Assembly (NCBI GenBank): GCA_029265905.1
Contig: JAJUGR010000009.1
Coordinates: 9,176 to 73,175 of the forward strand
DNA: 64,000 nt
Origin: Sporomusaceae bacterium
GTDB lineage: Bacteria > Bacillota > Negativicutes > Acidaminococcales > JAJUGR01
Direction: 5' to 3'
The notes beneath the pieces are model-generated. The model was not told where the DNA came from, did not search any database, and saw nothing but the letters and a program-made list of their open reading frames with translations. The number at the start of each line of letters is the position of its first letter. The first letter of the stretch is position 1. A program made the position numbers and the translations under genes. This document shows positions 27,555-33,076 of the stretch, piece by piece.

Positions 27555-29345
27555 ATGCGAGATGGACGCTATCAGGCCTGGATTGAGCGAATCAAGGCTG
27601 AAAGCGATATTGTGTCGGTGGTAAACGGTTACACGAAGTTGGAGCGGCGGGGCAGAACGTACTGGGGCTGCTGCCCCTTTCACCAGGAGAAAACGCCGTC
27701 CTTTTCGGTTACGCCGGACAAGGGGCTTTTTTATTGCTTTGGCTGTCAGGCGGGCGGCGATGTTATCAGCTTTCTGATGAAGGTTGACCATTTGACGTTC
27801 ATGGACGCGGCCAAGAAATTGTCCGTTCAGCTGCACATCCCGGTTCCCGAACGGGAGCAAACGCCGCAAGAGCAGGCGCGGGAAAAGCAACTGGCGAAGA
27901 TACGGGAGGCAAATGGGCTGGCGGCCCGCTTTTTTCACGCCTGTCTTGAACAAACGGAACAAGGCCGCCTGATGCGGCAGTACCTGCGCAACCGGGGAAT
28001 CGACAAGGAGACAAGCGAAAAGTTCATGCTGGGCGCGGCGCTTGATCGCTGGGACGCTTTGTTCAAGGCCTTGTCAAAGCGGGGCGTAGAGCCGGAAATA
28101 ATGCTGGCTGCCGGCCTGATCGTCAAACGCGAAAAAGGCGACGGGTATTATGACCGCTTCCGCAATCGCGTCATGTTTCCGATCAAAGACGCCCACGGGC
28201 GGGTGGTCGGATTCGGCGGCCGCGCCATGGGCGACGCTTCGCCGAAATATTTGAATACAGGCGAGACGGAATGGTTTAACAAGCGCCAATTGCTGTATGC
28301 GCTTGACATTGCGCTGCCGGTGATCCGCAAGGAACGTCAGGCCATAGTCGTGGAGGGGTATATGGACGCCATTTCCATGCATGCGGCAGGACTGCAGCAA
28401 ACGGTCGCCTCCCTGGGAACGGCCTTTTCCGAGCAGCAGGCGCGCCTCTTGGCCAAAATTGCGGATTCGGTTTGTTTTGCTTATGACAGCGACGCGGCCG
28501 GGCAGCAGGCTACCGGCAGGGCGTTGGAGATAGTCAGGAAAATCGGCCTCAAGGCGAAGGTCTTGTTGCTGCCTGACGGCAAGGATCCTGATGAATACGT
28601 TCGCAACCATGGGGCGCAGGCGATGGTGGCCCTCTTGAACCGGGCGGTGTCGCCGCTGACCTTCCAGGTTGAACAAGTACTCGCCAAAGCGAATTTGTCC
28701 ACGCTGGCAGGAAAAATTGAGGCCGTGTCGAATATACTACCATTCCTGGCAGACGCGGAAAGTACTGTTGAAGTTGCCGAGCAGGTGCGTCAGCTCGCGG
28801 GGCGGCTCGCTATCGATGAAGGCGTGGTGCAAAGCGAGCTTCGTGCCTATCTGCGAAAAACCGGCACCAGGCAGCCGGCGCTCGCGCCGGCTTACCGTCG
28901 CCGCGGGCCGGTTGAAACGGCCTGGGTTGAGGCGGAACGCCAATTAGTACTGTTAATGCTGTATGATCCGGGGTTGACGCCTTATCTGGCAGCCGAGCTG
29001 CCGGAAGGCTTTTTGGGGGAAGAGCGGGCGGAGATTTTCCGGGTTTTGTGCGAAAAGCATGCGGCCGGTGAAAAGCCTTCCGGCGAGTCCTTGGTCGGCA
29101 TGCTTCCGGAGCGGGCCGGAGCCGAACTGGCCAGAATACTGGTTACTGACTATGTGCCGCCGGAGGATATGATGAAGACGGTGGAAGACCTACTGCGCCA
29201 AGTGCAGCGGGCCAGACTAGAGCAGCGGTATGAACAGCACCGGTTGCAGGCTGATGAATTTGAACGGATGGGGGATAGCCGCTTTTTGCAGGAATTAGCA
29301 GAAAGTCAGCGAATTAAAGATGAAATTAAAAGATTGTTGGGTTAG
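27555..29345 (+). CDS. dnaG: DNA primase
   Basis: CPFHQEKTPSF..CFGC zinc finger, DRFRNRVMFPI, PKYLNT, TOPRIM VEGYMD and YDSDAAG. Confidence 0.98.
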   Translation: MRDGRYQAWIERIKAESDIVSVVNGYTKLERRGRTYWGCCPFHQEKTPSFSVTPDKGLFYCFGCQAGGDVISFLMKVDHLTFMDAAKKLSVQLHIPVPEREQTPQEQAREKQLAKIREANGLAARFFHACLEQTEQGRLMRQYLRNRGIDKETSEKFMLGAALDRWDALFKALSKRGVEPEIMLAAGLIVKREKGDGYYDRFRNRVMFPIKDAHGRVVGFGGRAMGDASPKYLNTGETEWFNKRQLLYALDIALPVIRKERQAIVVEGYMDAISMHAAGLQQTVASLGTAFSEQQARLLAKIADSVCFAYDSDAAGQQATGRALEIVRKIGLKAKVLLLPDGKDPDEYVRNHGAQAMVALLNRAVSPLTFQVEQVLAKANLSTLAGKIEAVSNILPFLADAESTVEVAEQVRQLAGRLAIDEGVVQSELRAYLRKTGTRQPALAPAYRRRGPVETAWVEAERQLVLLMLYDPGLTPYLAAELPEGFLGEERAEIFRVLCEKHAAGEKPSGESLVGMLPERAGAELARILVTDYVPPEDMMKTVEDLLRQVQRARLEQRYEQHRLQADEFERMGDSRFLQELAESQRIKDEIKRLLG

Positions 29346-29402: not shown

Positions 29403-31004
29403 ATGACTTCCAAAAAGTTGCCTCAAGAACAAGTGAATGAGTTGTTGCATAAAGGGAAGAAGCGTGGCGGCATGCTGACCTATAAAGAAGTTATGGACTC
29501 CATGCAGGCGGAAGAGCTCTCCCCTGATGACATTGACGATATGTATGAGCTTTTTTCGCACAAGGGCATTGAAATTGTCGACGAACTCCCCGATGGGGCC
29601 GTGCCTGAAGCGCCTGACCTGCCCATTGTCGAGGAGGAAGGCGAAGAGAGCCGCGAAGAGCTTGATTTGGACCTCTCGATTCCCGAGGGGATCAGCATCG
29701 ATGACCCCGTCCGCATGTACCTAAAGGAGATTGGCCGCGTTCCCCTTCTGACGGGGGAAGATGAAATCAAGCTGGCCAAGCGGATGGACAAAGGCAATCA
29801 GGCGGCGTTGATCCGCGACCGCGGCGAGGTGGCGTCTGTTGCCGCCCTCAGGCCGGTCGGTGACGAATCGTTTGAGGAATTGTTCGAACGCGTTAATCAT
29901 ATGCTGGCGGAGGAAACGGCCTCAATCGTCAAGCGTGACGTCGAGGCAGTGCTTGTTTCGCTGATCCAAAAGGCCGCGGCTGACGGCAACCAGCTGACTT
30001 CGGCCGACGTGCAGGTGACGGGCGCTGAACTGACGCGTGACGAGACGCAGCAAATCACGCGCAGCCTGGTGGCGCACAAAATCAATATCATGTCGGCGCC
30101 GCCGGTCGTGCTGAAGGCGCAGACTACGGACAAGGAAGGAAACTACCTGGCCGAAATCAACACGTTCCTGGATTGCATCGGCACCCGCTTGGAGCATGAT
30201 AATGACGCTTATGCGTTCGTCGCGTACCAGGAATGTCAAAAACGTTTTTCCGGCTTGCTCAACCAGGTCATTGACAAGGGCGAGGCGGCGAAACGCTGCC
30301 TGTCGGAAGCAAACCTGCGCTTGGTTGTCAGCATTGCCAAGCGGTATGTCGGACGCGGCATGCTGTTTTTGGACTTGATCCAAGAGGGCAACCTCGGCTT
30401 GATTAAAGCGGTTGAGAAGTTCGACTACAACAAAGGCTATAAGTTCAGCACGTATGCGACCTGGTGGATTCGTCAGGCGATTACGCGGGCGATTGCCGAT
30501 CAGGCGCGGACGATACGCATTCCCGTGCACATGGTGGAAACGATCAACAAATTGATCCGCGTCTCGCGCCAACTCCTGCAGGAACTGGGCCGCGAGCCGC
30601 TGCCGGAAGAGATTGCCAAGGAAATGGACACCACCGTGGAACGCGTGCGGGAAATCATGAAAATCGCCCAAGAGCCGGTTTCGCTGGAAACGCCGATCGG
30701 CGAGGAAGAAGATTCGCATTTGGGCGATTTCATCGAAGACCAGGATGCGCCGGCCCCGGCGGATGCCGCCTCCTTCATCCTGCTGCGCGAGCAGCTCGAG
30801 GAAGTGCTGGAAACGCTGACGCCGCGGGAAAAGAAGGTGCTCCAGCTGCGCTTCGGGCTCGAGGACGGCCGCAGCCGGACGCTCGAAGAAGTCGGGCAGC
30901 ATTTCGGGGTTACCCGCGAACGGATTCGCCAAATCGAGGCGAAAGCGCTGCGCAAGCTCCGCCATCCGAGCCGCAGCAAAAAGCTGAAGGACTTCTTAGA
31001 GTAG
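29403..31004 (+). CDS. rpoD: RNA polymerase primary sigma factor RpoD/SigA with a large insertion
   Basis: Region 1.1, [47 protein letters not shown], region 4 [16 protein letters not shown]; 533 aa. Confidence 0.98.
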
Positions 31005-31073: not shown

Positions 31074-31148
31074 TCCTCGATAGCTCAATGGTAGAGCACG
31101 CGGCTGTTAACCGCGGGGTTGTAGGTTCGAGTCCTACTCGAGGAGCCA
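31074..31148 (+). tRNA. tRNA-Asn (GTT)
   Basis: Acceptor stem TCCTCGA/TCGAGGA, anticodon GTT at 31106-31108, GTTCGAGTC T-loop, encoded CCA. Confidence 0.97.
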
Positions 31149-31151
31149 TAC

Positions 31152-31226
31152 GGGCCTATAGCTCAGCGGTAGAGCCGCCGGCTCATAACCGGCTGGTCCC
31201 TGGTTCGATCCCAGGTGGGCCCACCA
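31152..31226 (+). tRNA. tRNA with CAT anticodon, most likely tRNA-Ile2 (lysidine type)
   Basis: Acceptor stem GGGCCTA/TGGGCCC, anticodon loop CTCATAA (CAT 31184-31186), encoded CCA. G1-C72 pairing excludes the initiator tRNA; stem and loop resemble Firmicute Ile2. Confidence 0.88.
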
Positions 31227-31295: not shown

Positions 31296-31979
31296 ATGGA
31301 ATTGGATCGCCGCTTGGCCGCCTTGGCTGATTTCGTGCCGCAAGGCGCCCGCCTGGCCGACATCGGGACGGATCATGCTTATTTGCCGGCCTGGCTGGTG
31401 CAGCAGGGAAGGATTAAGCAGGCCATTGCTTCGGATGTTTTGCCCGGTCCCTGTCAGGCCGCGGAAAAAACAATCGCTGCCGCCGGCCTGAGAGGTCAGA
31501 TTGCCGTGCGGTGCGGCGACGGGCTGGCGACGCTTGCGCCCGGCGAAGCGGACACGATTGCGATTGCCGGCATGGGGGGGGCGACCATGATCGCTATTTT
31601 GGAGCGCGAGCCTGAGGTTGTGGCCCGGGCGCAACAACTGATTTTACAGCCCATGGGCGGCGTGGCCGGTGTGCGGCGCTGGCTCTATGAGCATGGCTGG
31701 CACTTGGACGGGGAAAACGTGGTGGTTGAACGCGGGCGCTGGTATGAAGTTTTGTCCGCCCGGCCCGGCTGGCGGCCCTGTCCCAGCGAGGCGCTGCTGT
31801 GGCTAGGGCCTGTTTTGGCCCAGCAGCGCCATCCGCTGTTGGCGGAACATGCCGCCTTTATTTTGAATAAGCTGAAGCGGACCCTGGCGGCGATGCAGGG
31901 CGGCAAAGACACCGGCGACCGGCAGGCTGACTACCGCCGGCTGATTGCGCAGATCGAGGAGGTTGTGGCAAAATGGTGA
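31296..31979 (+). CDS. trmK: tRNA m1A22 methyltransferase TrmK
   Basis: RLADIGTDHAYLP, GDGL, IAGMGG, LILQPM. Confidence 0.94.
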   Translation: MELDRRLAALADFVPQGARLADIGTDHAYLPAWLVQQGRIKQAIASDVLPGPCQAAEKTIAAAGLRGQIAVRCGDGLATLAPGEADTIAIAGMGGATMIAILEREPEVVARAQQLILQPMGGVAGVRRWLYEHGWHLDGENVVVERGRWYEVLSARPGWRPCPSEALLWLGPVLAQQRHPLLAEHAAFILNKLKRTLAAMQGGKDTGDRQADYRRLIAQIEEVVAKW

Positions 31980-33076
31980 CGGTAGCAGATGTGCTTGACG
32001 CATTGGAGGCGATTGCGCCGCTGGCCCTGGCCGAACCGTGGGACAACGTCGGCTTGCTCTTGGGCGACAAACAGGCGGCGGTCGGGACGATCGGCATCGC
32101 CCTTGACGTGACGCCCGAGACGCTGGCTGCGGCAGCGCGGGCGGGGGTTGACTGCCTGATTACGCACCATCCCTTGCTTTTTGCCGCGCAGAAAAGATTT
32201 GTCGCCGAGCAATGGCCGGACCGGGCGGTTCTTGAGCTGATGCGGCGGGGAACGTCCCTGATCGCCATGCATACCAACCTGGACAAGGCGAGGGGCGGCG
32301 TAAATGATTGCCTGGCAGCCTGCTTGCAGTTGGAGCGGATTCGTCCGCTTGAGGAGGAGCCGCAGGCGATGCGCAAATTGGTTGTTTTCGTGCCGGAGAG
32401 CCATGTTGAGCTGGTGGCGCAAGCGATCGGCGCGGCCGGGGCAGGGCAGCTCGGACATTATCGCGATTGCAGCTTCAGGACGGCGGGGGTTGGCGCATTT
32501 CGGCCGCTCGACGGCGCCAAGCCCTACATCGGCCGGCCGGGAAAATTGGAAAAAGTGGCGGAAGTGCGGCTGGAGGCGCTCGTTGCGGAAGCGTTGACGG
32601 ACAAGGTGCTGGGCGCGATGCTGGCTGTCCACCCGTACGAGGAGCCGGCTTATGACCTGGTGGCCCTGGTGAATGATTTTAGGCGGCCGGGATTGGGGCG
32701 AATCGGCGAGTGGCCGGAAGCGGTTACGCTGCAGCAGGCGGCCAAGCTGGTTCGGCGCGCGTTTCCAGGAAGGATGCTGCGCTTCGCTGACGCCGGGCAA
32801 AAGGTGCGGACCGTGGCGCTGTGCGGCGGAAGCGGCAGCGACCTCTGGCGGACGGCGCAACGCGCCGGGGCGGACTTGCTGATTACGGCTGACTGCAAGT
32901 ATCATGAGGCGCAGCGGGCCTGGCTGTCGGGGCTGAGTCTGATCGACCTGGGTCACGATGATTCGGAGCGGCCCGTTTTGACAGCGCTGGCGACGCGGCT
33001 TGAGGAAGCGCTGAGCGCGCAAAGCGGCGTGAAGACGATTGTCCTGGCGCAAGCTTCGCTTTGGCAGGCAGAATGA
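31973..33076 (+). CDS. Nif3-like dinuclear metal centre protein (YqfO type, with inserted PII-like domain)
   Basis: WDNVGLL, ITHHP, HTNLD, KLVVFVP..GAG..G.Y..CSF, HPYEEPAYD, GHDDSE. Confidence 0.93.
   Translation: MVTVADVLDALEAIAPLALAEPWDNVGLLLGDKQAAVGTIGIALDVTPETLAAAARAGVDCLITHHPLLFAAQKRFVAEQWPDRAVLELMRRGTSLIAMHTNLDKARGGVNDCLAACLQLERIRPLEEEPQAMRKLVVFVPESHVELVAQAIGAAGAGQLGHYRDCSFRTAGVGAFRPLDGAKPYIGRPGKLEKVAEVRLEALVAEALTDKVLGAMLAVHPYEEPAYDLVALVNDFRRPGLGRIGEWPEAVTLQQAAKLVRRAFPGRMLRFADAGQKVRTVALCGGSGSDLWRTAQRAGADLLITADCKYHEAQRAWLSGLSLIDLGHDDSERPVLTALATRLEEALSAQSGVKTIVLAQASLWQAE

Follow-up and report, generated by a model that had tools for sequence, protein, structure and literature searches.

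A housekeeping sigma factor of the Acidaminococcales whose non-conserved region probably contains a diverged internal copy of region 1.1

We analysed a 64,000-nucleotide stretch of contig JAJUGR010000009.1 (assembly GCA_029265905.1, deposited as Sporomusaceae bacterium), hereafter called the window, with respect to its gene for the primary (group 1) sigma factor RpoD/SigA, which occupies positions 29403–31004 and lies, as do all features described here, on the forward strand. The open reading frame (ORF) encodes 533 amino acids (aa), all five sigma-70 regions (1.1, 1.2, 2, 3 and 4) score above the Pfam gathering thresholds, and NF006666, the NCBIfam Firmicute RpoD equivalog of 370 positions, matches with 619.5 bits against a cut-off of 572, the match being split in two pieces. 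From the N-terminus, the canonical region 1.1 with its acidic linker (aa 7–85, 29421–29657; PF03979, 67.2 bits) is followed by region 1.2 (aa 101–134, 29703–29804; PF00140, 61.2 bits), at the end of which the triplet DKG (GACAAAGGC) is encoded at 29787–29795. Region 2 (aa 302–370, 30306–30512; PF04542), region 3 (aa 379–455, 30537–30767; PF04539) and region 4 (aa 468–521, 30804–30965; PF04545) come only after an insert of 162 aa (aa 132–293, 29796–30281), delimited by translation, alignment and profiles. This insert is probably a lineage-specific non-conserved region (NCR) of the housekeeping sigma factor, with a diverged internal copy of region 1.1 as its globular core.

Upstream of the sigma gene, the dnaG ORF (DNA primase, 27555–29345) ends 57 nt before its start, a gene order also found in three relatives outside the order (L112–L114, among them Acetonema longum) and in E. 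coli. Downstream, tRNA-Asn(GTT) and tRNA-Met(CAT) (31074–31226) are followed by two overlapping ORFs (31296–33076), which we take to encode TrmK-type methyltransferase and Nif3/YqfO-type proteins from the resemblance of their sequences, as after B. subtilis sigA. The genome contains a single full-length sigma match and three weak ones in ORFs of 221–253 aa (E 5e-13 to 1.2e-4), and the 533-aa ORF is its sole primary sigma. Since there is no second one, the insert-bearing protein must be the working housekeeping sigma factor, and the insert consequently acts inside the active holoenzyme.

The insert runs from N132 to G293 and is free of stops in frame. B. subtilis SigA (7CKQ_F, 371 aa) can be aligned up to residue 133 of the query and picks up again at residue 290, and the extra sequence falls between the Pfam matches r1_2 (101–134) and r2 (302–370), which is the NCR position. 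With identical boundaries, the spacer between regions 1.2 and 2.1 measures 165 aa here versus 4 aa in insert-less Firmicute sigmas, bearing out what the first-pass annotation, made from the sequence alone, had claimed on both counts, namely an in-frame insertion of about 162 aa between regions 1.2 and 2.1 and next to no NCR at this place in Firmicute SigA. Neither G+C content (GC), G+C content at third codon positions (GC3) nor skew shows a break across the insert, and its GC and GC3 equal those of the rest of the gene. The flanking DKG codon triplets lie where they had been placed before, the second one (GACAAGGGC) at 30273–30281, at the junction with region 2.1. In relatives, this second position mostly reads xQG, EEG or ERG with the glycine alone conserved; we dropped the direct repeat as a general duplication scar, as it is not conserved.

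Named records (Phascolarctobacterium, Acidaminococcus, Succiniclasticum) assign the order of the window's genome to Acidaminococcales. In a whole-genome search, a full-length sigma match (query residues ~2–533) was obtained in 40 of 41 genomes from 18 genera of this order, the single genome without such a match being only 75% complete. We additionally surveyed 301 Negativicutes genomes, a sample of a larger class, with a hidden Markov model (HMM) of the insert, a survey of RpoD that had been suggested earlier. The whole insert was matched in 66/66 sampled genomes of the order and also in G060, a metagenome-assembled genome (MAG) of another family (the 'Negativicutes bacterium' record of L021). 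Partial matches were found in two further families, f18, with sigma factors of ~590 aa and inserts of 226–230 aa, and f29, with sigma factors of ~700 aa and inserts of 336–338 aa; the latter family includes RpoD of Acetonema longum DSM 6540 (L114, 701 aa). The remaining ~220 of the 301 genomes gave no match, and since their sigma ORFs are mostly 369–395 aa long, most of them lack the insert. The insert is thus a trait of the whole order and is not confined to this genome. We found no published description of this insert or of sigma-1.1-derived NCRs, in a literature search whose coverage left most subscription journals outside.

Across the order, mean column identity amounts to 44% in the insert, 49% in region 1.1 and ~95% in regions 2–4. 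The length of the insert and the residues E171, R178, T211, E214, L249 and G293 are fixed. The ratio of non-synonymous to synonymous substitution rates (dN/dS) is 0.02–0.19 for the insert, 0–0.10 for region 1.1 and 0.002–0.008 for regions 2–4; the insert is under purifying selection and evolves at about the rate of region 1.1 itself. Its size and the flanking DKG/DKG repeat are all that speaks for an intein, a remnant of a mobile element or an artefact of assembly or annotation, readings that are practically out of the question and were ruled out, in line with the earlier rejection of an intein: Hint, intein and endonuclease profiles are all absent, the junctions are G131/N132 and G293/E294 (the insert starts with N132 and ends with K292-G293), the frame is kept open in 66/66 independently assembled genomes of the order, selection is purifying, composition is native, and the repeat is not conserved.

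The relation of the insert to region 1.1 is most clearly visible from profile–profile comparison. Aligning 14 inserts by hhalign with region 1.1 of the same proteins gave a score of 32.3 (P 4.6e-5), with insert positions 47–98 lying on region 1.1 positions 7–61. The excised module matched region 1.1 of the order with 91% probability (E 1e-6), and region 1.1 of 49 insert-less Firmicute sigmas with 84% probability (E 8e-6); against the latter set, the whole insert scored 28.8 and the module 30.4. All four scores (32.3, 35.3, 28.8 and 30.4) exceed those of column-shuffled nulls, which averaged 9.6–9.9 with a standard deviation (sd) of 1.6–1.8 and reached a maximum of 17.6 in 400 shuffles, as well as those of reversed-profile controls (10.1 and 13.5). 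Judged by these profiles, the similarity between insert and region 1.1 is far beyond chance. Both share the pattern L-[LI]-x-K..G-x-L-T..[ED]-[VI]....L-[ST]-x-[DE]-E...I-x-[IV], and the register found by hhalign is the one of the by-eye alignment in the first-pass annotation, in which the insert segment AVLVSLIQ...INIM (nt ~29946–30092) had been laid on EQVNELL...IEIV with a 2-residue gap.

Direct matches to a region 1.1 model were obtained most strongly in the Acetonema-type inserts. For this comparison, a sigma-1.1 HMM was built only from the 49 insert-less sigmas, so that no insert sequence was included, and it recognises region 1.1 of E. coli at 45.7 bits. The insert of Acetonema longum was matched with 47.7 bits (E 2.6e-15) in three individually significant domains, and those of two further sigma factors of family f29 (L112 and L117) with 21.8 and 20.1 bits in four domain matches each. 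Scores were lower for the insert of G060 (11.7 bits), an insert of family f18 (L115, 9.5 bits) and the insert of the window, which reached 6.4 bits over HMM positions 6–60. For shuffled inserts, the 99th percentile was 4.6 bits and the highest of 2500 shuffles 11.1 bits. Pfam PF03979 likewise finds three stretches of Acetonema RpoD each passing E 1, for which positions in the protein are not given. Since most Acidaminococcaceae inserts show no direct HMM signal, homology of the window's copy rests on profile–profile and transitive evidence.

Structure prediction and comparison with known region 1.1 structures, which had been proposed as a check on the sigma-1.1-like fold, gave a congruent result. 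In the AlphaFold2 (AF2) model of the full-length protein, region 1.1 is predicted with helices (H) and strands (E) H8–20, E24–26, H27–33, H41–53 and E57–59, and the insert module with H180–193, E197–199, H200–206, H212–224 and E228–230. The elements thus follow in the same order and with the same lengths (H-E-H-H-E) at a constant offset of 171–173 residues. The predicted local distance difference test score (pLDDT) of the module is 80–91 over most residues and thereby above that of region 1.1 itself. The sigma-1.1-like module (aa 178–231, 29934–30095), delimited by hhalign, HMM, AF2 and Foldseek and containing the invariant R178, T211 and E214, is flanked in the model by two helices, alpha-A (aa 157–176, 29871–29930, pLDDT 80–91), with the invariant E171, and alpha-B (aa 249–266), with low-confidence loops at residues ~141–156 and 231–248 between the parts. 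The region-1.2 helix extends to residue 140 and the region-2.1 helix begins at 269, so that the 54-residue module would sit at the turn between these extended helices. The remainder of the insert (30096–30281) accordingly comprises the loop from residue 232 to 248, alpha-B beginning with the invariant L249, and the first part of the long region-2.1 helix, with the second DKG and its invariant G293 at the end.

Predicted alone (aa 174–236), the module adopts the same topology with a pLDDT of 74.7. In a Foldseek search of the excised module model against 350,542 PDB chains, sigma 1.1 from T. maritima (2K6X) ranked first, sigma 1.1 from B. subtilis (5MWW) second, with a template modelling score (TM) of 0.67 and a root mean square deviation of 1.8 Å over 53 columns, and a SigA model (9A58_A) third, TM ranging from 0.52 to 0.67 for 2K6X and 5MWW. 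A search with the full-length model returned whole sigma chains only and was uninformative on the insert. A sigma-1.1 fold of the module is therefore supported by the predicted models.

Several results weigh against an origin of the module from region 1.1 and would be expected if the insert were an ordinary helical, lineage-specific NCR unrelated to it, its likeness being due to chance or to convergence of a small helical fold. The profile search of the insert with Pfam Sigma70_r1_1, proposed in the first-pass annotation, came out blank, as did NCBIfam, even at E 10, and BLASTP of the insert against the protein's own N-terminus gave no match. The 6.4 bits of the window's insert lie below the best of the shuffled sequences, and the sigma-1.1 HMM gives no direct signal in most Acidaminococcaceae inserts. 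On the structural side, the full-length model was built from a shallow alignment of 19 sequences with a mean pLDDT of 67 and is of moderate confidence, and the Foldseek E-values (0.46–2.8) are individually non-significant for such a small domain, so that it is the ranking that carries the weight. However, the hhalign scores lie ~10 or more sd above the shuffled mean and at about twice the reversed controls, the Acetonema-type repeats are recognised at E 2.6e-15 by an HMM free of inserts and by PF03979, the top-ranked folds in the PDB are exactly those of sigma 1.1, and the register is identical in every method. We therefore regard chance or convergence as very improbable and already largely refuted. 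The similarity of the insert to sigma 1.1 postulated in the first-pass annotation is thus recovered at the profile–profile level, with probabilities of 84–91% and scores above the null maximum, and not by the Pfam profile.

The inserts of the different lineages can be related to each other through their modules. The module of the type found in the window matches repeat 3 of the four repeats in Acetonema with 97.6% probability (E 4e-12) and the module of family f18 with 96.4% (E 1e-9); in a per-genome comparison, alpha-A together with the module matches the Acetonema-type repeat 3 at E 6e-11. Alpha-A (insert-profile positions 21–46) moreover accompanies the repeat-3-type module in each of the three lineages, f29 and f18 among them. 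On these profile matches, f29 has the orthologue of the window's module in repeat 3, and f18 in its single module. The Acetonema repeats 1, 2, 3 and 4 match the sigma-1.1 profile with probabilities of 94.7, 95.7, 77.7 and 91.8%, and each of them resembles the profile of the N-terminal sigma 1.1 more closely than it resembles the other repeats, in keeping with region 1.1 being the origin of the repeats and changing most slowly among the copies. In f18, the second half of the insert is not detectably like sigma 1.1 (0.3% probability). In two f18 sequences (L113 and L115, insert residues ~125–200), this half ends in ...IEGGNLALSYGLL, the same motif as in the segment after the Acetonema-type repeat 4 (...IEGSYLSLAHHLL), and it may, from this motif, be a degraded repeat 4.

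The simplest history that we infer from these relations is intragenic duplication in an ancestral Negativicute, in which the region-1.1 segment would have been copied once or several times into the turn between regions 1.2 and 2.1, the acidic, DNA-mimicking surface being lost afterwards. Either Acetonema may have gained three repeats or the Acidaminococcales may have lost them. No DNA-level scar of a duplication remains, which leaves room for the module to be sigma-1.1-like and yet captured from elsewhere, the donor being a foreign sigma gene or some other gene for a small, related domain of the winged-helix-like kind. That this class of fold is common is also apparent from the insert HMM, whose best match among PDB sequences is only AdcR, a MarR-type winged helix, at E 0.042. 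Against such a capture, sigma 1.1 is the only Pfam family with individual stretches passing E 1 in the Acetonema insert, the best PDB matches of the module are sigma-1.1 structures, the Acetonema repeats are each closer to the N-terminal sigma-1.1 profile than to one another, and the insert equals the rest of the gene in GC and GC3. We hence consider capture improbable and a copy derived from the protein's own region 1.1 the likely origin of the module. The first-pass annotation had proposed that the NCR position holds a sigma-1.1-like fold of lower acidity, and this proposal is upheld by four independent tests, the profile–profile matches, the predicted topology, the Foldseek ranking and the orthology to Acetonema repeat 3.

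Database searches and the genome survey brought up further sigma sequences. With phmmer, a search of the insert against 1.84 billion representative proteins was of no use, its matches being confined to a spurious repeat protein and a Phascolarctobacterium sigma fragment with a frameshift. A word-indexed search of 5.8 billion proteins returned 4 relatives with the insert region as query and 2 with the Acetonema insert, counts which reflect the word filter and not rarity. Some Phascolarctobacterium genomes contain a second, diverged sigma-70 paralogue (L116:720–2528, G017:C12; also G242 and G296; NCBI MDY2637184.1) of 602 aa with ~45% identity, featuring a long linker after region 1.1 that is acidic and rich in Lys, Ala and Pro. 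This paralogue contains the order-specific insert (insert HMM positions 23–161, E ~1e-21), and the duplication of the sigma gene therefore postdates the insert. In family f31 (L119 = G160:C1 and L120 = G196:C1; genomes of ~1.4 Mb), the primary sigma displays a different insert of 125–129 aa between regions 1.2 and 2.1 and a Lys-rich N-terminal extension of ~150 aa, and a second sigma gene is located ~1.2 kb away in both genomes; of this insert only two sequences are available, and with these no kinship either with the Acidaminococcales insert or with region 1.1 could be detected. One sigma of the Acidaminococcaceae type (P0006) has a long Lys/Val/Thr-rich N-terminal extension before region 1.1, recalling the basic tails of actinobacterial HrdB/SigA, and long sigma ORFs of 697–871 aa with putative start codons occur in the Acidaminococcaceae genomes G038, G005, G022, G034, G037, G239, G254 and G287. 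A 4-kb contig labelled as 'Acholeplasmataceae bacterium' MAG (L031, JAAYAE010000322.1) encodes an insert-bearing sigma of the Acidaminococcaceae type with 61% identity and is probably mis-binned. In an uncultured Phascolarctobacterium (L034, CASEGD010000001.1), the sigma match is 1621 nt long, which is not a multiple of three, and contains 21 stops in translation, which points to a frameshift or an assembly error; a frameshift also affects P0007 (140 aa), a piece of a Phascolarctobacterium sigma.

With regard to function, the module differs from region 1.1 in its charge. In these proteins, region 1.1 carries a mean charge of -6.1 and the linker after it -12.9, compared to -0.8 (range -5 to +4) for the internal module and about -6 for the insert as a whole; an acidic linker is missing after the module. 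The module is thus less acidic than region 1.1, as the first-pass annotation had stated. The property to which DNA mimicry by region 1.1 is ascribed has thereby been lost. As putative roles of the module, the first-pass annotation had named regulator docking and promoter melting. Those invariant residues of the insert that can be placed, namely E171 and R178 around alpha-A and the helix cap T-x-D-E, which mirrors L-S-P-D-E of region 1.1, look structural, as far as can be judged from sequence.

The tip of the hairpin between regions 1.2 and 2.1 lies on the outside of sigma-2 in holoenzyme structures, distant from the downstream channel. We suggest that the module would project from this outer face as the globular head of the NCR, as in the NCRs of E. 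coli and spirochaetes, where it would adjoin the beta-prime clamp and duplex DNA at about -13 to -20. In this place it would modulate how open complexes form or how the polymerase escapes from promoters, or offer a surface for docking; autoinhibition from within the main channel would not be among its roles. We put this role forward tentatively, as one possibility for which neighbouring systems offer a precedent: R157 in the NCR of E. coli contacts template DNA at -16/-17 and promotes opening (bioRxiv 10.1101/256826), and the NCR protrusion of Spirochaeta africana contacts -17 to -19 (bioRxiv 10.64898/2026.02.09.704077). Two observations speak against a role of this kind. No conserved basic patch was identified in the insert, which weakens a model of conserved DNA contact, and a co-occurring insertion in beta-prime was sought and not found, its ORF measuring 1322 aa here versus 1320 aa in an insert-less lineage.

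A site next to the NCR that upstream fork DNA takes up later can be occupied by sigma 1.1 in the spirochaete holoenzyme (bioRxiv 10.64898/2026.02.09.704077), and a copy tethered to the NCR could reach this site. Together with the fold common to module and region 1.1, this would be compatible with an internal copy that keeps the job of sigma 1.1, acting as a second autoinhibitory DNA mimic in the main channel of RNA polymerase (RNAP) or blocking promoter binding by free sigma. However, the acidity behind the mimicry is lost, no acidic linker is present, and the module is tethered by short segments (the loops of aa 141–156 and 231–248) to a hairpin tip that faces outward on sigma-2, at a distance from the downstream channel, which renders retained autoinhibition an improbable role. 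Hardly more probable, though worth formulating, is a scenario in which the sigma-1.1 copies embedded in the NCR would be cis-acting gatekeepers beside the upstream-fork site, which would either lie in the path of the duplex at -12 to -20 or influence its course, or else trade places with the sigma 1.1 of the N-terminus, and would thereby add a tunable, copy-number-dependent step of promoter opening in these diderm Firmicutes.

NCRs are known as lineage-specific elements variable in size and composition (review PMC4598750), and the insert described here is no exception. With the NCRs of E. coli sigma-70 (residues 128–373; Sigma70_ner, PF04546) and T. aquaticus SigA (72 residues; sizes from bioRxiv 10.1101/256826), it shares the insertion point between regions 1.2 and 2.1 and the emergence from the helical hairpin of sigma-2. 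It differs from both in its core, which is here probably a duplicated region-1.1 domain. We consider the E. coli NCR unrelated in sequence, since it gives no match to the sigma-1.1 HMM and 1.2 bits with the insert HMM, and PF04546 does not match the protein at E 10; in a comparison of the insert profile with the PDB, no sigma NCR was matched. With region 1.1 itself (PF03979; 2K6X, 5MWW), the module has the predicted H-E-H-H-E topology, the spacing, the motif pattern and the profile similarity in common, and differs from it in being internal, near neutral, without acidic linker and, in this genome, below the Pfam threshold. The alpha-helical NCR protrusion of Spirochaeta africana and mycobacterial RbpA have different folds, are not expected to be homologous to the insert and serve as models only for the function suggested here. 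True homologues of the window's insert are, by the profile evidence above, the NCRs of Acetonema longum RpoD and of family f18. The Acetonema-type NCR features four repeats in ~336 aa and the Acidaminococcales NCR one module in ~160 aa, and that of f18 (226–230 aa) consists of one clear module and a C-terminal part of no assigned type.

In the current view, a region 1.1 at the N-terminus characterises housekeeping sigma factors, and the NCR is a spacer that varies between lineages and is unrelated to it. In several lineages of Negativicutes, among them the gut genera Phascolarctobacterium and Acidaminococcus and the model diderm spore-former Acetonema longum, the NCR of this essential protein would consist of diverged copies of region 1.1, one to four in number, which is a clear and unexpected domain architecture. 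The order Acidaminococcales and its allies can be cleanly recognised by the insert. Its history would show that an NCR can originate by intragenic domain duplication, and it would constitute a natural experiment in which the sigma-1.1 fold has been stripped of its acidic DNA-mimicking surface and relocated to the outside of sigma-2. If the copies do contact DNA, the beta-prime clamp or the N-terminal region 1.1, they would represent a new layer in the control of transcription initiation in these bacteria.

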